Shown piece after piece: positions 7,038 through 15,556 of a stretch of 64,000 nucleotides of DNA. How positions within the stretch are numbered: position 1 is the stretch's first letter; every line of letters starts with the position of its first letter. The DNA lies in IMG/VR virus record IMGVR_UViG_3300035208_000846. One strand, given 5' to 3'. Under the pieces are notes generated by a model. It was not told where the DNA came from. It worked only from the letters and a program-made list of their open reading frames with translations, and ran no database searches. The DNA comes from an uncultured virus (IMG/VR IMGVR_UViG_3300035208_000846). Taxonomy: Duplodnaviria > Heunggongvirae > Uroviricota > Caudoviricetes. Made by a program: the position numbers and the translations under genes.

Positions 7038-7585
7038 CAGTCTTCCCCGGAAAACTTGGCTGTCAGGTTCTCGCGTAACTCAGCCGTTTCTTTCGCCGAC
7101 AGGGGACCGTGCTCGTCCTGAATCTCGGCAATCTCTTCCTCAACGAAATTGGGATTGCACTGGTAGGGTTCCGGTTCCGTGTCGCTCTTTCGCGGCGTAA
7201 CGTTGATCGAGCCTTTGCATCCCCACCCCTTCTCAACGCAACGGTTCTGAACGTCTGCCCGGCTCGATACCCAAGCTCGCGGGTCGTATGGGTCATTCCC
7301 CTCTGAGTCAACGAGGCCAGGGCAGAAGCGTTTGCCTGCGACGCTCACGCCTAATTCCTTGGCTCGTGCCCTGGCCAGCTTCCTTGTTCGCTCATCGCCC
7401 CCGAAGCCATCGTTGACGTGACTACCGATCATGAATGTCGTGTCAGTCACCAGGCCGTGAACCGGGTTGGTCTGCATCAACTTCCGGCCACAACGCGGAC
7501 AGTAAAGCTCCTGCTCATCTTTTCCTCGCTGGTGAATCAACCGCCGGTAGCGGCATTTCCAACACTTATAGACGAACTCACTCAT
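7037..7585 (-). CDS. zinc-ribbon protein (FmdB-like N-terminus)
   Basis: YKCWKC...CPRCG; typical position after the portal. Confidence 0.6.
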   Translation of the reverse strand: MSEFVYKCWKCRYRRLIHQRGKDEQELYCPRCGRKLMQTNPVHGLVTDTTFMIGSHVNDGFGGDERTRKLARARAKELGVSVAGKRFCPGLVDSEGNDPYDPRAWVSSRADVQNRCVEKGWGCKGSINVTPRKSDTEPEPYQCNPNFVEEEIAEIQDEHGPLSAKETAELRENLTAKFSGED

Positions 7586-9498
7586 TCCACGACCTCAGCT
7601 TCTTGTGGTTCCTCTTGTTCCGGCCCCGGCAGCATTGGTTGCATCTGCAACTGGGGGAGCATCAGCCCGTTCGTACTCAGCCCCATCGGCTCGCCAATCA
7701 TGTGAATCAGATTGTTGACTTGCGCTGGATCGCCCGTCGTCTGGTAGACCTGAAGCAGCGGCCCGAGCAGAATCTGTGCGATGCTCTGGACCTCGGCGAA
7801 TTGCTGACTGCGGTTCTTCCGGCGTGCGGTTCCGGCTTCGACCGTGTAGTCGTATTCGCCGGCCGCCAGCACCGGGTCCGCCTGTGTGATAATTGTGCCC
7901 CAGAAGAATGACAGCGGCGTGGACATGTCTGGCACGCCGCCTTCCGGCATCGGTTCCCCGAACAGATGGAACGGCGGGGGAACGTACATCCGGGTCAGGA
8001 TCGCTTCCTTCGCAGCGATGTCCGACATGAACGCCTCGACGCAATCCGCCATATCCTCCGGCCGGCTGGTGACGTGGCCTTCCCTGATCTCGGCTTCTCT
8101 CGCCGATCGGTATTGAAAATTCGATTCGCCGTGCATCAACGGCGACATGCCGGATGCACGCTCGAACCGGGACTCTGCCAGTTCAATCACGTTGAAGAAC
8201 TCGGCCCTCAGTTCCGGGAACTGGATTACGTGGATCAGCTTCGTGATGTCTTCCAGCGTTTCCAGCGAGACGGCGACCGTCTCTTGATCTACGCCGCTTT
8301 CAATCGCGTCCCAGACTTCCTGCTCCAGAGCGGAGGCGACTAGGATAATGTCCCGACTGGTGGCTCGGACCCGTCCCAACAGGAACGACCAGGCATGGTC
8401 GAGGAACACCAAGAGCGGCAACGCACCCTTGAGCGGACTGGTTGACCAGGGGTTCTCGCTGTTCGGGAAGTAATCCAGCACGGTGCAAGGCCACGGGTCG
8501 TAATTCTCGTAGAGCGGGATCGGCCATTCCAACCGCGCCTTGATCTCTTCCCCAACCGATTCAACCGCCAACTTGTCCGGTGCCAAGTTCAGCGGGTAAT
8601 CCATTCCCGGCACGATAACCAGGAAGGCGTGTTGAACATCGGCCAGTGCGTCTCGCTGTGACAGCAATTCTTCGCTCGCCGATGGCAACTGCATCCCCAA
8701 GCCAATCCGGCTGTAGACCTCGTAATATTCCACGATGTCCCCGGTCGTCTCGTCCGGATCAGTCGGCCGTCCTGCCTCTCGTTCCTGATGACCCCAAACA
8801 GCCTGCGCCATGTGGGAGGCGAACTTGGCCCTCATCAACTTGGCGTCTACGCCGTAGATTTCTTCGAGTCGCCAGGCACTCGCCCGCCGCTTGCGTGCAA
8901 TCCATGCCGCCTCGCGCAGTGATTCGGTGTCCGGGTCGATAACCAAGGACTGAACAGTATCATGCTGGGTGACCGGCATGATTGAGTTGCCGTCCTCATA
9001 GAGTGCGTGCCAGACCACCTGCCGACCTTTGACGAGCGATTCCGGCAGGCCGCGTCGAATCTCCGTCGCCAACTTGTACTGGCTCGGCGTCCAATTCAAA
9101 TACCAAGTCAGCATGTATGCCCCGAGCCGTTCCGCCATCGGTAACGGCAACCCGGCTTTCATGATCGCCATCGGGTTGAACAGCGGCATCAATTCCGGCG
9201 GAAGATCAGGACGACGCGGCGACGCCAGCCGATGTGGCACTTGAGCAAAAATGTATGGCATCATCAGTGCCACGTATTCCTGCGCAAGATTACGGCGAAC
9301 TTTATGACGAGGCCCCGCCGCGTCGTGGAATGCCCGCGGTTCATCATCCTCCGAACCGCTCATGTGCAGTTGTTGGTATGACTTGCCCAGGAAGCCCCAG
9401 ATGCGATCGGCCTGCTCGCCGAACTGCCGACGCTTACACTTCTCGGCAGTCTTGAGTTGCCGTTCCCATAAATCTGTGAGACTTCTGAGCCAAGACAT
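7582..9498 (-). CDS. portal protein
   Basis: ~640 aa helical protein downstream of TerL; SGMS...G, SAREA and YDYTVEAGT motifs, Q/P/M-rich tail; start inferred at MSWLRS. Confidence 0.8.
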   Translation of the reverse strand: MSWLRSLTDLWERQLKTAEKCKRRQFGEQADRIWGFLGKSYQQLHMSGSEDDEPRAFHDAAGPRHKVRRNLAQEYVALMMPYIFAQVPHRLASPRRPDLPPELMPLFNPMAIMKAGLPLPMAERLGAYMLTWYLNWTPSQYKLATEIRRGLPESLVKGRQVVWHALYEDGNSIMPVTQHDTVQSLVIDPDTESLREAAWIARKRRASAWRLEEIYGVDAKLMRAKFASHMAQAVWGHQEREAGRPTDPDETTGDIVEYYEVYSRIGLGMQLPSASEELLSQRDALADVQHAFLVIVPGMDYPLNLAPDKLAVESVGEEIKARLEWPIPLYENYDPWPCTVLDYFPNSENPWSTSPLKGALPLLVFLDHAWSFLLGRVRATSRDIILVASALEQEVWDAIESGVDQETVAVSLETLEDITKLIHVIQFPELRAEFFNVIELAESRFERASGMSPLMHGESNFQYRSAREAEIREGHVTSRPEDMADCVEAFMSDIAAKEAILTRMYVPPPFHLFGEPMPEGGVPDMSTPLSFFWGTIITQADPVLAAGEYDYTVEAGTARRKNRSQQFAEVQSIAQILLGPLLQVYQTTGDPAQVNNLIHMIGEPMGLSTNGLMLPQLQMQPMLPGPEQEEPQEAEVVE

Positions 9499-9499
9499 G

Positions 9500-9892
9500 C
9501 TACGACCTCGCTTGCAACGCACGCTCCAGGCCGGTGATTCGCTTCAGCAGCTTCTCTACCGTCTCTTCGAGCAAGTTGATTTTCTGCTCTGCGGCGCGGA
9601 TCATGACTTCGCGTTTCGAGAGGCGGAACACGCCGCGGCGCTCCTCGCTGTTGATGATCCCGGGGTTCGTCTTGATGCGCGGATCATTTTCGTACCAGCA
9701 ATCTTCGAGCAAGCCACGGCGGACGACTCCGCCGCCCGTACCCATGAACCAAATGTCTGCGGACTTGCGGCGGGGAGTGACGATCACGCCCCAATCTGCG
9801 TAGGTGAATGCAGGGTCCAGGCAAACTTCGACCTCCGTACCGCAGAACAGTTCCGGCGTATCGAATTCGTGCATTCCGTCGATCGTTGACAT
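9500..9892 (-). CDS. hypothetical protein with C-terminal coiled coil
   Basis: 130 aa between TerL and portal. Confidence 0.6.
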   Translation of the reverse strand: MSTIDGMHEFDTPELFCGTEVEVCLDPAFTYADWGVIVTPRRKSADIWFMGTGGGVVRRGLLEDCWYENDPRIKTNPGIINSEERRGVFRLSKREVMIRAAEQKINLLEETVEKLLKRITGLERALQARS

Positions 9893-9921: not shown

Positions 9922-12777
9922 TTAGCCGATCTCAAGTTCGGCTCCGTAACGCGAAACACTTTTTCGGCGGCGATCACGTCTGCGGCTGTGGTAGCCTTCG
10001 ATCATCGCCTTGTAGGTGTCGATCTTTTCCAAACCCAAAACGCGGGAGGGGATTTGCGGCTCGTGGTATCCCGGCTGGAAGGAGGCGGCATACTCAAGGG
10101 TCGTTACCGCGTCTTGGGGAATCTTGGTTGAACGCTTGCCAGTCTTAACGTCGATGTGGGCTCGTTTGATTTCCTGATCCAACTTGGGACAGCACCCTCG
10201 CATGACCTGCAATGTCGGAGTCCCGGAGAAGGGGCCGGTCCCCCGAATTGCCAGCCAGCGATTGACTGCCATCTGCCGGGCCTCCACGTCCTTGTTGCCC
10301 GGATAGAATCCGCCCATCGAACCCAGGGAGCGAATTTGCACGCCGGCCTCACGGAGGGCAAGGAAATACTCTTCGGCCGTGTTCTTGTTCGAGATTCCCA
10401 TCTGGTGCTGGGAACCGGCCTTCTGGTCAATCACTGCCGCCTCCCATGCGTGGTCCCGGTCTCGGCGTTTGACCGCCGCCGCCCACTTGACTGTGTTCGA
10501 TTGGTTAATAACCTCCTCGTCGTAGACCCAGATGTGCTGCTCGTCAGGATCGACGGCAAGGAACAGGGTCGCACAGAACCGCGTTCCCGGATCGACCACG
10601 AAGTAGCGTGCCCAGTCGGGAGGAATCTCGAACGGTTCGCAACCGTGAATTCCCTGCGGTTGGTAGGAGGGATAGATACGGCGGCCTTGGAGAGCGAAGT
10701 TGCCTTCCCATCTGCTGATTCGCTCGTCCTCTGGAATTGATTCGTAGAACGCCTGCTTCTCGTCGTCCGGGATGTAGGGGTTTTCCCACACGAGAAACTG
10801 AAATGCCTCTACGTTCCGGCCGCCCGTCGCTGCCACTTCGGCCAACTCCTGCAATTGCGGGTTGGCGTTCTGCGGCGTGGCACTCCACCACATGCGGGGA
10901 ATGTGCCTCGGGTCTTCAGCCAAGGCCACAGCCCCTCGCCGTGCCTCGATATAGAACTGCTCATTCGCTAACTGCTCGTCGAACCAGACGGCGTTGTAGT
11001 GTTCGCCCTTCTGCGGTCGGCCTTCGCTGGAGCGGAACAGGATTCGCCAGCCGTTGATCCGCGACTTGACGTACCGGGGAATCTCCCGGCTGGCGTTCTC
11101 CCACGAGGGAGTCTGATAGGCTCGCTCCGGCAGCAGAGGAGGCGCGTCTTCCCACTTCTCCCGGTAGGCGTCGTCGTATGGATCGAGACGCAAGGGGTTG
11201 TCCGGATCGAACCGCACCGCCCGCCAGAGCTTCGTCTTCTCGTCCCGGATCTTTTTGAACTCCCCCGGTTGCGCCATCTTCTTCCAGAGTGCGCCAAGGT
11301 GGTCCATGTCCTCGGAGACAACCAGCATCAACCCGTCTTTGGGGAACTTATCATGCGGGTCGCAGTTCATGAAACAGCGGCACGCTTCAGCGGCTGCGCT
11401 GATCGTCTTAGAACTGTTTGCATGAGTCAGGCCAGCCAATTGATAATTCGCATATTCATCTACCGAAAAGTCCCAAATCGCGTCGTTGCCAACAAACTCG
11501 ACATGGGATACAATCGTTCTTGATGAAACACTAGCCACTTCGATAGAGGTAGGGTGCGATGCGAAAAAGACAAGCTCTTCCAGAAGACGAGTTGCGGCAT
11601 CTGTACGAGGTGAAGAAGATGACGCAACGTGAGATTGCAAAACACTTTGGTTGCGGCTGGAAAAAAGTGTTGCGGAATCTTCGCAAGTACGGCATTGAAT
11701 CCCGCAGGACTGGCCCCCGGAACGGCGAGTTGCATCCACAATGGAAGGGGGGGGTGACAATGGCTGGCAAGTATCGTGTCGTCTATGCGCCAGATCATCC
11801 GCACGCGAAGAAGGTTCACAAGTCAGGCGGCTATGTTCATGAGCACCGCTTGATAATGGAAGGGATTCTGGGACGATACTTGACCCCTGGAGAAATTGTC
11901 CATCACAAGGACGGGAATACTCTGAACAACGATCCAGAGAACCTGGAACTGTTTGCCTCAAACACGGATCATCTGCGTGCGACTTTGAAGGGGAAAGTCC
12001 CGAAATGGACAGATGCAGGTCTCGCCGCAATACACGATGGAGCAAGCAAGCCTCGGAAAGTCTCTGAGCACCTACTTCCTGAAATTCGTCGTCAATACCT
12101 AGAGGAACGAATTCCTCTAGTCGATCTCGCCGCACAGTATAATTGCGCACCCTGCGCGATTCGTTCTTTTCTTCAGTACCACGGCGTCCCCCTGCGTAGT
12201 CCGCGTGAGGCTTCGACGAAACACAAGATGCCGTCGAAAGATGAATTGCAGTTTGCCTATAACAAACTTGAGCACAAGGCGCTTCTGAAATATTTCGGAG
12301 TTTCTGTTGGCGTTCTGTACTCTTGGCTTCATAAGTACAAGATTCCCCTGAAAGAATCGCATCGCCCACGGAAATCCATTTCCCCTGAGACGACAGAATC
12401 CTGTGCTTCAGGGTAGCGATGAACGATTCCCCAGTGGACAGATAGACTCGGAACAGTTCGCCTTTGCCTTTCACGAACGGTCTTCCAGCCGGCCTGATCT
12501 CCAATTCGCCGGTTTGCGGATTGCGGCTGTAGACATGGAAGTCGGAGTCGATCTGGTCTATCCTCCGGTATTCTCCGCGTACTGGATCGAATATCTTCTG
12601 CTGTCCCCCGAGGCAACGGTTGGACCCGTAGACGATCCGAGTCTTGGCCTTGGATGCGTGAAACTGCTCGCCAACTGGCAGCGGGTTAAAGAGTTGCAGA
12701 CCTTCCCCTCGCAACTGCACCAGCTTCCGCAAGATGCGTTCTTCGGTTGCTCGTCGGATCGCCGCCGCCCTAGTCAC
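9922..12777 (-). CDS. terL: terminase large subunit containing a 400-aa intein
   Basis: Spliced Walker A GSNR|SSKT, Walker B VWFDEQ, SATP motif, ENPYI, nuclease VVDPG and QDA. Confidence 0.92.
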   Translation of the reverse strand: MTRAAAIRRATEERILRKLVQLRGEGLQLFNPLPVGEQFHASKAKTRIVYGSNRCLGGQQKIFDPVRGEYRRIDQIDSDFHVYSRNPQTGELEIRPAGRPFVKGKGELFRVYLSTGESFIATLKHRILSSQGKWISVGDAILSGESCTYEAKSTERQQKLRNISEAPCAQVCYRQTAIHLSTASCVSSKPHADYAGGRRGTEEKNESRRVRNYTVRRDRLEEFVPLGIDDEFQEVGAQRLSEACLLHRVLRRDLHLSISGLSPSKSHADDPCLRQTVPGSLDRCSEYSRPCDGQFLQGSSIVPESLPLSSGAHEHSRLTCEPSSRADDLAHRRHDTCQPLSPPPSIVDATRRSGGQSCGIQCRTCEDSATLFSSRNQSVLQSHVASSSSPRTDAATRLLEELVFFASHPTSIEVASVSSRTIVSHVEFVGNDAIWDFSVDEYANYQLAGLTHANSSKTISAAAEACRCFMNCDPHDKFPKDGLMLVVSEDMDHLGALWKKMAQPGEFKKIRDEKTKLWRAVRFDPDNPLRLDPYDDAYREKWEDAPPLLPERAYQTPSWENASREIPRYVKSRINGWRILFRSSEGRPQKGEHYNAVWFDEQLANEQFYIEARRGAVALAEDPRHIPRMWWSATPQNANPQLQELAEVAATGGRNVEAFQFLVWENPYIPDDEKQAFYESIPEDERISRWEGNFALQGRRIYPSYQPQGIHGCEPFEIPPDWARYFVVDPGTRFCATLFLAVDPDEQHIWVYDEEVINQSNTVKWAAAVKRRDRDHAWEAAVIDQKAGSQHQMGISNKNTAEEYFLALREAGVQIRSLGSMGGFYPGNKDVEARQMAVNRWLAIRGTGPFSGTPTLQVMRGCCPKLDQEIKRAHIDVKTGKRSTKIPQDAVTTLEYAASFQPGYHEPQIPSRVLGLEKIDTYKAMIEGYHSRRRDRRRKSVSRYGAELEIG
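11486..11514 (+). promoter_or_regulatory. sigma70-like promoter for the antisense HNH gene
   Basis: TTGCCA (11486-11491), 17 nt spacer, TACAAT (11509-11514); GAGGT at 11546-11550 lies 8 nt before the ATG at 11559. Confidence 0.65.
11559..12416 (+). CDS. HNH homing endonuclease with HTH domains, antisense inside the TerL intein
   Basis: HTH (MTQREIAKHFGC), WKGG, YVHEHRLIME...IVHHKDGNTLNNDPENL, further HTH-like segments. Confidence 0.88.
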   Translation: MRKRQALPEDELRHLYEVKKMTQREIAKHFGCGWKKVLRNLRKYGIESRRTGPRNGELHPQWKGGVTMAGKYRVVYAPDHPHAKKVHKSGGYVHEHRLIMEGILGRYLTPGEIVHHKDGNTLNNDPENLELFASNTDHLRATLKGKVPKWTDAGLAAIHDGASKPRKVSEHLLPEIRRQYLEERIPLVDLAAQYNCAPCAIRSFLQYHGVPLRSPREASTKHKMPSKDELQFAYNKLEHKALLKYFGVSVGVLYSWLHKYKIPLKESHRPRKSISPETTESCASG

Positions 12778-13190
12778 CCGACCTCCTTCAGGACCGCTGC
12801 CTTGGTTTCCGGAGTCAACTTCCCGAACAGGTCTTCCAGGAACTCCCGCCGCAATTGTTTCTCCAACGCCTTCATCGAGACTTCGTCTTCGTCCACATCG
12901 TCTTCGCCGTACTTCTCCAGCCCCCGGAGAACCATGTTCAGGACGGACGTTTGCGCTGCACTTCCCGGTGGCGCGTTCTCGAATGCAGCCCGCAAAAGCT
13001 GTGCGATACCAGTCGGCCCGCCGAACTCGTTGAACGTCGCCAGCGTGGTTGTGCGAAGAGAAAGTCGGAAGGCGTCGTCACTGACCGATTCCGGTTCGCG
13101 TGGGGCTTTAGCCGGCCGCCAGCGTTCCCCATCGATCATGCGGAGGATCGCCCGGGCATCCTCGACCACGTCGCCGCTTGAATCTCCCAT
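12774..13190 (-). CDS. putative terminase small subunit
   Basis: 138 aa helical protein overlapping the TerL start by 4 nt; call by position only. Confidence 0.45.
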   Translation of the reverse strand: MGDSSGDVVEDARAILRMIDGERWRPAKAPREPESVSDDAFRLSLRTTTLATFNEFGGPTGIAQLLRAAFENAPPGSAAQTSVLNMVLRGLEKYGEDDVDEDEVSMKALEKQLRREFLEDLFGKLTPETKAAVLKEVG

Positions 13191-13468
13191 GTCTCCCTCA
13201 CGTCCTTACCGCGTGTCTGCCAGCGGTGGACCTTAATGTTTCCTTCGATTCTCACCCGCTCGTTGGCGAACGTCGCCGCCATCTGGTCTGCCAATTCGTC
13301 CTTCCCGGTGACTGTGAATTCCATTCCGTTGGCAGTCACGCTGGCCTTTGCAAACCCTCCCTCGTATGGCAAGTCAACCTTGATCGGCTGATGGTTTACC
13401 GTTCCCTCAACAATGGCCGTTGCTTGTTGACAAGATCGCGCATCGAGTACCAGCCCCGGCCCTGACAT
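13136..13468 (-). CDS. OB-fold/SSB-like protein
   Basis: VRIEGNIKVHRWQ...TWEIQA resembles SSB core strands. Confidence 0.5.
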   Translation of the reverse strand: MSGPGLVLDARSCQQATAIVEGTVNHQPIKVDLPYEGGFAKASVTANGMEFTVTGKDELADQMAATFANERVRIEGNIKVHRWQTRGKDVRETWEIQAATWSRMPGRSSA

Positions 13469-13740
13469 TCCCCGCAAGCTCCTTTGCACTCACACATGAC
13501 ATACGGCAGGGCCGACATAATCTCCTGCTCGATCCCTGCCATGTGACGGTAGACTGCATCCCAATCCACAACCTGCCCACCGTAATCCGTTTCCTTCCGG
13601 ATCAGGCGATACTGCAATCCGTGCAAGTCGGTCAACGCCTGCATCATCTCGACGCGAAATTGAAACGGTTCCCGGAGCCAGACCGGAACCCGGTCGCCGT
13701 TGGCGTCTCGATAAATCTCTTCCTTGTTGGCGGAAATCAT
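13396..13740 (-). CDS. hypothetical protein with C-terminal Cys cluster
   Basis: PYVMCECKGACGECQGRGW; similar to the C-terminus of the ParB-like ORF (PYCVCPICGGNGCKQCEHRGW). Confidence 0.55.
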   Translation of the reverse strand: MISANKEEIYRDANGDRVPVWLREPFQFRVEMMQALTDLHGLQYRLIRKETDYGGQVVDWDAVYRHMAGIEQEIMSALPYVMCECKGACGECQGRGWYSMRDLVNKQRPLLRER

Positions 13741-13789
13741 AATGGCGTCCCGCCAGATTCCGTTCTGGCGGGACGAAGCACCTCATGCG

Positions 13790-14356
13790 TCACGAACCCT
13801 TGATGCCACCAAGCCACAGATCGACCCAGACCAGGACGGCGGTATCGGATGTCGATCCGCCTTGGTCCACTGTGCCGATCACGAACTGGCCGGCGGTCAT
13901 CGTGCCTCCATACAGGCAGCCCAGATCGTCGCAGATAACCTCCGAATGGACAGCGTGGGTGATTGCGCCGGCTTCGGTTCTGATGTTGCATGGACCACGG
14001 ACGACGCCCCAGAAGTAGTCTTTCGACGGAATCGAAAACCCCGTCGCGTAGGCATCGTCGATCGGGATGCACGCCTGGCCGGCGGTGTCCGTCAGTGCGT
14101 CCACCTTGCGGCCGTAGTCGTAGGCGTCCGTCCCGAACTTGTAGACGTTGTTTGCCATCGTCAACGCGGTATCTGCGTCGTTCTTCAGCAGCCGCAAGAC
14201 GACTTCGCCGCCCAACTCATGGACGGTATCGGCAACGACGAACTCGGCCCCGAGCATGTGGTCGAGCGATTCGTCGCTGACAGTCATGCCAATCCCGCCG
14301 CCGTCCGAAAACGTCGTACCACGGGCGAATGGCAGGTTATTTCCTCGCAAAGGCAT
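13790..14356 (-). CDS. putative capsid decoration/cement protein
   Basis: 188 aa directly after the MCP; YFWGVVRGP motif. Confidence 0.6.
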   Translation of the reverse strand: MPLRGNNLPFARGTTFSDGGGIGMTVSDESLDHMLGAEFVVADTVHELGGEVVLRLLKNDADTALTMANNVYKFGTDAYDYGRKVDALTDTAGQACIPIDDAYATGFSIPSKDYFWGVVRGPCNIRTEAGAITHAVHSEVICDDLGCLYGGTMTAGQFVIGTVDQGGSTSDTAVLVWVDLWLGGIKGS

Positions 14357-14404: not shown

Positions 14405-15484
14405 TCAGCTAATGGCCAGGAACTTGGTCTGGAACGCCGGCGATTCCCAGATCATCTGGAGGTGGGAATCAAGACCGATCCGCTTGTTCTTGGTCGTCAG
14501 GTCGAAGTCCTCATCCATTTCAACGAGCTTCTTCCCCATCACATGGAGCCGAATCTTGTCGAATCGGATGCCGTACCCGACGCCGGCGGGAACGTACATG
14601 TCCTCAAGGAAGTCCACGCCCATGTACGCCATCGCGTCGATGCCCGCGTCGATCAGCGTCTTGTTCTGCGTGACCTCAAAGGACTGGTCCGCCTCGAACG
14701 ACTGCTTCGCCTGGAGCATCATCAAGGGGGTAATGACGATCAGGTCGGGTTTCTTGCCGTGCAAGACTTTCTGGAACGTGATGCCCCAGTTGACGACTTC
14801 CTGCCACTGGCCAGCCCAGGTCGCTGTGGAACTCAGGAACTTCGCGTTCGTGTAGTCCACCTCTAGCGGCGAGAAGAAGCAGTAGGCTTCGTCTCCGGAG
14901 CCAGTCGGCCAGGTCTCGCTGTCTTCCGCCGTCCACGATCCGCCGTAGGCAGCCAGCGCCGTGTTTAGTCCGGCGTATGTGCCGGTCGGCGTGCCGACGC
15001 GAGCGTTCTCAGCAACGGCCGAAGCATTGAAGACCGACTCGATGCCGTGAAGCTCCTGGCTCCCGGTGGCCGCGCCATCGGTCGTCCACTTGCTGGCCAA
15101 GTCGATCCGGAAGTCCTCCATCGTCTCCTTGATGGCGTCTTCCAGAATGTTGTAAAAGGCGTTCGGATCATTCTGCGAAGCCAACTGGGAGAACTTCGAG
15201 ATCGACTCGCCAAGCTGGTAGGCGCGATAGGGAACTTCGCACCGCTTCTTGGTGTTCGTCGCCGGAAAGTCCATCGCCAGCGGATCGCCGGCAACGTGGA
15301 TGCTCCGCCGCTTGTAACGGACGTTCCACCACGTTTCGTATCCGCCGCAGTTGTATTTGATCTGACCCTTCTTTTGGATCATCGCCCAGATTGGCGATTC
15401 CTGGAAAAGAGGATCGACCTGCTCCTTGACCAGCGCCGCAATAGTCGCGGTCTGGACCTGAGCATTGGGAGAAATGTGAGCCAT
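14405..15484 (-). CDS. major capsid protein
   Basis: ~360 aa after the scaffold; AGGAG RBS; ELHGIES, KPDLIVIT, YMGVDFLED motifs typical of HK97-fold MCPs. Confidence 0.8.
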   Translation of the reverse strand: MAHISPNAQVQTATIAALVKEQVDPLFQESPIWAMIQKKGQIKYNCGGYETWWNVRYKRRSIHVAGDPLAMDFPATNTKKRCEVPYRAYQLGESISKFSQLASQNDPNAFYNILEDAIKETMEDFRIDLASKWTTDGAATGSQELHGIESVFNASAVAENARVGTPTGTYAGLNTALAAYGGSWTAEDSETWPTGSGDEAYCFFSPLEVDYTNAKFLSSTATWAGQWQEVVNWGITFQKVLHGKKPDLIVITPLMMLQAKQSFEADQSFEVTQNKTLIDAGIDAMAYMGVDFLEDMYVPAGVGYGIRFDKIRLHVMGKKLVEMDEDFDLTTKNKRIGLDSHLQMIWESPAFQTKFLAIS

Positions 15485-15556
15485 TATCAAACTCCTACTT
15501 TCAGCAGGTTAAAAAACACGAACGACTAGAGGGATGAGGGTAGGAGGTTTTGTTAA

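Follow-up and report, generated by a model that had tools for sequence, protein, structure and literature searches.

Inteins whose endonuclease is encoded on the strand opposite to that of the host gene have been described before. Antisense LAGLIDADG genes occur in the inteins of Synechocystis DnaX and of a Chloroflexus SpoVR-like protein, for which a recent preprint credits Gorbalenya (1998) and Gogarten (2002), and antisense genes for VSR-like endonucleases occur in actinophage inteins, some of them in terminase large subunits (bioRxiv 10.1101/2025.01.02.630785). The accessible part of that preprint gives HNH endonucleases as in-frame only and mentions neither antisense HNH genes nor promoters. 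We describe here a locus from an uncultured virus of the Caudoviricetes (IMG/VR record IMGVR_UViG_3300035208_000846), of which a stretch of 64,000 nucleotides, hereafter the window, was analysed; within it an open reading frame (ORF) for a protein resembling the terminase large subunit is interrupted in its Walker A motif by a 400-amino-acid (aa) intein, and the opposite strand of the intein carries a complete gene for a protein with helix-turn-helix (HTH) and HNH motifs.

The locus resembles the antisense-endonuclease inteins in having an opposite-strand ORF between the splicing blocks, a contiguous intein and an open host frame; the terminase large subunit host, a proposed invasion by a free-standing endonuclease and an apparent ongoing horizontal transfer are also shared. 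It differs in its endonuclease, which is an HTH-HNH protein of the HNH_3 family and neither LAGLIDADG nor VSR-like, and in occurring in uncultured environmental phages, not in actinophages, as far as the accessible text describes the known cases (bioRxiv 10.1101/2025.01.02.630785). Canonical in-frame HNH inteins use the same HNH_3 family, but their nuclease lies within the intein polypeptide, whereas that of the window is a protein in its own right, encoded on the opposite strand, and the intein carries only a mirror image that cannot be translated as HNH. Fractured genes, as set out in the accessible portion of Dassa et al. (2009; PMC2677866), likewise occur in phage-like DNA and have their intein parts separated by a free-standing endonuclease gene whose ORF overlaps the intein coding sequence; there the host gene is in two ORFs and the endonuclease, of GIY-YIG or Vsr-like type, has the same orientation, whereas in the window the ORF is unbroken and the gene antisense.

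The initial annotation of the window, made from the sequence alone, took this architecture to be undescribed, which the antisense LAGLIDADG and VSR-like cases contradict (bioRxiv 10.1101/2025.01.02.630785). The architecture as such is known; its HNH form, and the way this form has spread among environmental phages, seem not to have been reported before, no account of an antisense HNH intein having been found among the top matches inspected in the literature searched. PMC8966425 was considered as an antisense precedent and set aside, the 'opposite strand' of its accessible text referring to the cleavage site only.

The intein and its host gene

We consider it highly probable that this locus is a class 1 intein in the Walker A loop of a phage terminase, with the antisense gene, and not an in-frame domain, as its homing endonuclease. 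The junctions of the 951-aa host ORF (Table 1) read ...KTRIVYGSNR/CLGGQQ...AGLTHAN/SSKTISAA... (slashes mark the intein ends), and removal of the intein regains the Walker A motif GSNR-SSKT; the anatomy proposed in the initial annotation, a 400-aa intein splitting this motif, is correct to the base. Most features of a class 1 intein are present, namely Cys1, a block B TxxH, a terminal Asn, Ser at +1, a HINT fold and an in-frame site. Across 16 aligned inteins Cys1, the block B residue H71, the block F residue D382 and N400 are invariant, and the +1 nucleophile is conserved, being Ser in the window. The N-terminal region resembles the Mtu RecA mini-intein by sequence (E 0.0016), and the sole Pfam hit of the intein is a sub-threshold match to Intein_splicing (E 0.0026) that bridges both ends. 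An AlphaFold model built with the intein alignment has a predicted local distance difference test score (pLDDT) of 94-98 at residues 1-90 and 370-400, and of 32-56 over residues 100-363. Foldseek gave 26 Protein Data Bank (PDB) matches to this model at E<=0.001, all of those listed being inteins or intein-like, with Ssp DnaB (1mi8) at E 2.9e-6 and Mtu RecA and Npu DnaE also matched. As modelled, the two ends fold as a confident intein and the middle is disordered; a Pfam search of the middle found no domain, in line with the annotation's remark that none could be recognized there. The presumed essential role of the terminase, together with the conserved splicing residues, suggests that the protein splices.

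The host ORF is very likely a terminase large subunit. Its C-extein matches Pfam Terminase_6N at E 0.045, below the cut-off, and a PHROG search gave no family for the ORF or its C-extein. Database searching with the C-extein returned 70 homologues, 67 of them 526-606 aa long; Terminase_6N is matched at E<=0.01 by half of the 20 short intein-free homologues (best 2.3e-8), and the PDB hits of a profile of these 20 are only large terminases, albeit weak (E 0.15). The ORF is flanked on one side by a portal-like ORF (7582-9522; E 9.4e-6) and on the other by a major-head-like ORF (14405-15490; E 1.2e-17).

The initial annotation had proposed to look for mini-intein alleles and empty ones at the insertion site, and both exist. 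P0002 (GSNRSSKT) and P0005 (GANRASKT) are empty, each reading across the site without a gap, and the consensus of the 20 short homologues is GSNRSGKT. Mini-inteins of 130-134 aa occupy the site in P0001, L003, L004, L015 and L016; that of the 686-aa P0001 is at exactly the position found in the window, and its N- and C-terminal parts are homologous to those of the window. The 972-aa P0022 has a 405-aa insertion at this site, which was examined indirectly, on the protein, by aligning the residue sets permitted by the antisense frame to the HNH core: at the window's offset the score was 528, against 343 +/- 13.6 for 60 shuffles, the window's own intein scoring 901 as a positive control. The P0022 intein is compatible with an antisense HNH gene at the same offset.

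The antisense HNH gene and the open terminase frame

The 285-aa product of the plus-strand gene scores 38.5 bits with Pfam HNH_3 (cut-off 24.8; E 8.6e-10) and is also a match to PHROG 7545, 'HNH endonuclease' (E 1.3e-28), and to several HTH models, and the initial annotation was right to call it a complete HTH-HNH gene: the ORF is intact, and core residues E95, H96, H115, H116, N124, N128, N135 and H138 are invariant in 12 of 12 aligned HNH proteins. At its 3' end the HNH gene, with its final codons and its stop (12414-12416), runs into block B of the intein, as had also been noted. An AlphaFold model of the protein has a mean pLDDT of 75.6, with 92-94 in the core and approximately 75-86 in the two bundles of a C-terminal extension of about 120 aa, which is absent from 11 aligned relatives and includes PHROG DNA-binding matches at residues 175-217 and 237-273. 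It is because of this extension that the intein of the window has 400 aa and not about 300. The protein is like the I-HmuI type of HNH enzyme in that its core aligns to I-HmuI (1u3e; Z 6.5, root mean square deviation 3.7 over 81 residues, a middling score) and separate DNA-binding modules are present. The likeness to I-HmuI, which is intron-encoded, does not go further: a Foldseek search of the whole HNH model against the PDB returned nothing at E<=0.001, with I-HmuI at rank 15 (E 0.83), and a PDB sequence search with the protein gave a chance-level hit alone (E 0.81), no solved HNH structure being matched. We regard the 285-aa protein as a putative homing endonuclease.

Terminase codons are shifted by one base relative to the complement of the HNH codons, and a terminase stop is an NTT-A, NCT-A or NTC-A spanning a junction between HNH codons. 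None occurs over the 285 HNH codons, while the other two antisense frames contain 6 and 11 stops. The expected number is 8.5 when the gene's own synonymous codons are shuffled, 12.0 when codon order is permuted, 8.1 with the codon usage of the window and 9.1 with uniform synonymous usage, and a zero-stop outcome was seen in 0 of 20,000 simulations under each of these four null models. Avoidance of the three junctions, and the synonymous shuffling by which it might be checked, were both put forward in the initial annotation. In this frame relation Phe followed by an A-initial codon cannot be encoded, and the five Phe residues of the HNH protein precede Gly, Ala, Leu, Ala and Gly. It is a supported conclusion that the terminase frame is held open by selection on HNH codon choice.

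Related loci

A search of viral contigs with an alignment of the intein N-domain gave 25 loci, comprising one near-twin of the window, four of the mini-inteins, two loci cut by contig ends and 18 inteins of 287-314 aa. The initial annotation had proposed a search for antisense HNH genes in terminase inteins of phages; an HNH homologue lies antisense to the terminase inside the intein in 18 of 18 of these (six-frame phmmer with the window HNH; E 1e-21 to 8e-40), although several are identical in the region read and about 14 are distinct. All 18 have the frame offset of the window and no stop in the host frame, with 1-18 stops in the other antisense frames. By chance 1.7-12 stops would be expected per locus, the window included, and the probability of having none under synonymous shuffling is <=0.002 at 14 of the 18. 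At one locus (L013, 4134-4769, minus) the antisense HNH gene is present only as fragments of 157 and 54 aa, with the terminase frame still open, and looks like a decaying copy.

As a control we took 28 further HNH homologues from viral contigs, found with the same HNH query; 27 have at least one stop in the corresponding frame, at 1.6-9.8 per 100 codons. The set includes L047, whose ORF call has 22 codons only and is given no weight. The lone exception, L028, is itself an antisense HNH gene inside an intein, in this case in the P-loop of an SNF2-like helicase (Table 1). In-frame HNH_3 inteins account for four of the 28, in a ribonucleotide reductase (L049), a radical SAM/B12 protein (L050), a DNA polymerase A (L054) and an unassigned ORF (L055), and short free-standing genes for most of the rest. 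The HNH_3 family is found free-standing, in-frame in inteins and antisense in inteins. When genome contigs were scanned with the same N-domain alignment, 63 pattern matches came up; none was confirmed as a relative, and no host or prophage was identified in this way.

Selection and mobility

In 15 related pairs the ratio of nonsynonymous to synonymous differences (pN/pS) ranges over 0.08-0.43 for the HNH frame; for the shadow frame the range is 0.29-1.48, with >=0.72 in 13 pairs, although the pairs are phylogenetically non-independent and overlapping frames distort such ratios. In 14 of the 15, the third position of the HNH codons has the most differences. This pattern fits purifying selection on the HNH frame and a near-neutral shadow peptide that would be constrained only to lack stops. 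The initial annotation had pictured an antisense 'shadow' peptide that is spliced out with the intein; the near-neutral ratios and the pLDDT of 32-56 support its being an unconstrained linker without structure.

The inteins are more alike than the genes that contain them. Intein identity exceeds that of the first 600 nucleotides of the C-extein in L010/L011 (97.9% against 80.7%), L019/L025 (91.2% against 64.4%), L018/L025 (87.7% against 65.9%), L021/L022 (97.8% against 87.7%) and the window with its twin L002 (100% against 97.2%), which is consistent with horizontal transfer of the kind that homing with co-conversion would leave. The window and the IMG/VR twin contig are 99.4% identical over 4645 bases, with 28 differences and no gaps. 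All 18 of the differences within the terminase gene are in the C-extein (10780-11353), 17 of them synonymous, and none is found at 11354-14094, which includes the whole intein. The pair shows a sharp recombination boundary 63 bases from the C-terminal junction of the intein, with 18 differences in 574 bases and then 2.7 kb that are clean. In X1, a landfill run, the C-extein stretch 11207-11323 is present in two forms (seven differences; depths of 110 and 45.5), beside a single contig for 11294-13400.

Misassembly, which the initial annotation had named as a possible source of error, is not indicated. Both intein junctions are spanned without differences by contigs of two runs, one from landfill and one from groundwater, either of which may be where the window came from, and three assemblies, the IMG/VR contig and contigs from the runs of two studies, agree on the stretch.

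Expression of the HNH gene

The geometry of the locus requires a separate transcript for the HNH gene. A Shine-Dalgarno-like GAGGT precedes the ATG by 8 nucleotides, and among the related loci a purine-rich motif of this kind lies 5-10 nucleotides upstream of most HNH starts. Further upstream is the promoter-like site TTGCCA-17-TACAAT, with 10 of 12 consensus matches, in a region where two such sites are seen against 0.6 expected. The claim in the initial annotation that the gene has its own promoter and ribosome-binding site stands in so far as both sequences are present; the promoter half of it is a consensus match only. That annotation also held that this arrangement decouples the timing of the nuclease from late expression of the terminase, which is speculation. 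None of the runs listed as RNA contains sequence from 11300-12800.

Proposed mechanism and alternatives

If the locus works as we propose, ribosomes would read the terminase mRNA through the antisense of the HNH gene and so make an unstructured linker of about 270 residues, while the N-terminal 95 or so and the C-terminal 35 or so residues of the intein would fold together, excise the 400 aa and restore GSNR-SSKT. The HNH protein would be made from a plus-strand transcript that carries a ribosome-binding site of its own and may start from the promoter-like site; during co-infection it would cut intein-less terminase alleles, and repair of the cut would copy the intein and the HNH gene jointly. 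Selection would act on both strands, for amino acids in the HNH frame and for no more than the absence of stops in the terminase frame. The most likely origin would be the entry of a free-standing HNH gene into a mini-intein in reverse orientation, followed by transmission among terminases that had diverged and to at least one gene for a helicase.

The alternative that survives best, unlikely as it is, holds that the HNH gene of the window is a relic: the intein would splice and be inherited vertically, the endonuclease would be unexpressed or inactive, and its ORF would be open through recent acquisition. Decay does exist in the family, as the two pieces of L013 illustrate, and mini-inteins are found at the same site; moreover, no intein-less allele was seen in four sequencing runs, so that homing may lack a target in the population, and the window HNH is without a diverged close relative from which selection might be estimated. 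Such a relic is hard to reconcile with an intact 285-aa ORF that retains all the invariant catalytic residues and a Shine-Dalgarno-like site, with the HNH-frame pN/pS values of the family, or with inteins that are more alike than their exteins, those of the window and its twin being identical despite 18 differences in the C-extein.

We give distinctly less credence to the HNH protein being mainly an accessory packaging nuclease of the kind encoded beside terminases, not a homing enzyme, with its position in the intein secondary. Against this stand the antisense HNH-intein in the SNF2-like helicase gene and the terminase alleles with a mini-intein or no intein, which lack HNH and show that it is not needed in cis, as well as the homologous HNH_3 domains in-frame in ribonucleotide reductase, DNA polymerase A and radical-SAM inteins and the movement of the HNH gene together with the intein. 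The idea has its attraction in that HNH genes adjoining terminase genes are common in phages, according to the accessible text of PMC3592412, and at two of the related loci the intein-bearing terminase gene is closely followed, on its own strand, by another HTH-HNH_3 gene, a free-standing one (L011:6020-6697 and L012:6691-7368, both plus).

A fractured gene with a split intein, whose two polypeptides would be trans-spliced, with the endonuclease gene between the halves and the open frame incidental, is very improbable. Split-intein halves flanking a free-standing endonuclease gene are indeed known from phage-like metagenomic DNA, but the cases in the accessible part of that report have an endonuclease in the same orientation and a stop with a new start (PMC2677866), neither of which is found here, and the terminase frame is free of stops in the window and in all 18 related loci, where chance would supply 1.7-12 apiece. 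A chance open frame or an assembly artefact can be dismissed almost entirely, given the absence of any zero-stop outcome in 20,000 simulations under four null models, the preservation of the layout in 18 further loci and the agreement of three assemblies.

Several observations nevertheless count against the interpretation of the locus as an intein served by an antisense homing endonuclease. We infer splicing, plus-strand transcription and cleavage alike. The penultimate intein residue, His in 14 of the 16 aligned inteins, is Ala in the window and Lys in L003; a penultimate His is not universal among active inteins and is dispensable in some. Only near-identical copies of the window HNH were found, and its 120-aa extension lies outside the selection estimates; one pair, L021/L022, is reversed, with a pN/pS of 0.29 in the shadow frame and 0.38 in the HNH frame, and the caution that attaches to all these ratios applies here also. 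At four of the 18 related loci, the GC-rich L008 and L010-L012, the stop-free frame is weakly significant (P 0.05-0.11). Ordinary recombination, too, can make inteins more similar than exteins, and the contigs of the four runs, from which rare variants may be lost, contain no joint that skips the intein. Finally, when 13 HNH-bearing loci were scanned, a comparable promoter match in the same place was found at three, L009 (10 of 12), L014 (9 of 12) and L008 (8 of 12); there was none in L005, L006, L010, L011 and L028, and L013, L018, L019, L021, L022 and L025 have weak matches elsewhere only.

Implications

An intein with an antisense endonuclease gene offers a route by which an intein may gain a homing nuclease without in-frame fusion, and supports the order 'splicing first, endonuclease later'. 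Around a single terminase site we find an empty allele, a mini-intein, an antisense gene and a broken antisense gene, which may be seen as stages. The locus is also a clean natural case of dual-strand coding: selection preserves the protein sequence on one strand and only the lack of stops on the other, some residue pairs being forbidden to the nuclease. Gene callers will present such loci as a 951-aa 'hypothetical protein', or as a broken terminase and an HNH gene, and an intein annotation that considers all six frames would put many phage terminase calls right. A splicing core of 130 aa that tolerates an unstructured insert of 270 residues may interest intein engineers.

A broader proposal, which we offer tentatively and think rather doubtful, is that the antisense HNH-intein is a long-lived two-strand mobile unit of single origin that targets P-loop DNA and hops between unrelated nucleoside triphosphatase genes. 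Its known hosts of this type are several terminase families and the SNF2-like helicase, and a single origin is suggested because the frame offset is the same in all 19 loci. The position on the opposite strand might even be functional, either in making the nuclease early or independently of the late terminase message, or through antisense interference that damps the terminase.

Feature coordinates and gene neighbourhood

Table 1. Features of the intein locus in the window, and of the related helicase locus L028
Feature	Coordinates	Strand	Description
Terminase-large-subunit-like ORF	9922-12777	minus	951 aa, GTG start, intein read through without a stop
N-extein	12616-12777	minus	54 aa; GSNR at its end is the first half of Walker A
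C-extein	9922-11415	minus	497 aa and stop; SSKT at its start
Intein	11416-12615	minus	400 aa (ORF residues 55-454), Cys1...Asn400, then Ser+1
Intein N-terminal splicing region	12331-12615	minus	approximately residues 1-95; contains block B TLKH
Block B TLKH	12403-12414	minus	intein residues 68-71
'Shadow' linker	11521-12330	minus	approximately residues 96-365; translated antisense of the HNH gene
Intein C-terminal splicing region	11416-11520	minus	residues 366-400, ending ...THAN
HTH-HNH-HTH-HTH endonuclease gene (putative)	11559-12416	plus	285 aa, ATG start, TAG stop; wholly inside the intein
HNH catalytic core	11826-11978	plus	residues 90-140, with the eight invariant residues given in the text
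HNH C-terminal extension	12081-12335	plus	two extra three-helix (HTH-like) bundles
Promoter-like site TTGCCA-17-TACAAT	11486-11514	plus	antisense to intein residues 368-377
Shine-Dalgarno-like GAGGT	11546-11550	plus	upstream of the HNH ATG
SNF2-like helicase ORF	L028:1553-3751	minus	Pfam SNF2-rel_dom and Helicase_C; 280-aa intein in P-loop, DMG/C...NHN/TMKT
L028 antisense HNH homologue	L028:2938-3498	plus	44% identity to the window HNH

The GTG start of the terminase-like ORF overlaps, at 12774-12777, the 3' end of an upstream ORF of 138 aa (12774-13190, minus). This ORF had no hit in the PHROG search; it may be a candidate for the small terminase subunit, with translational coupling between the two genes. 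Among the 70 terminase homologues, the sole organism-level name belongs to P0046, a protein of 42% identity from a metagenome-assembled genome of the Planctomycetota, the others being labelled 'hypothetical protein' at most, and together with the occurrence of the stretch itself in landfill and groundwater metagenomes it provides a weak hint at host and habitat. Another homologue, the 911-aa P0040, has an intact Walker A motif, GPNQGGKT, and a different insertion of approximately 340 aa near its C-terminus, in which visual inspection suggests LAGLIDADG-like motifs; the terminase homologues would then have a second site for inteins.

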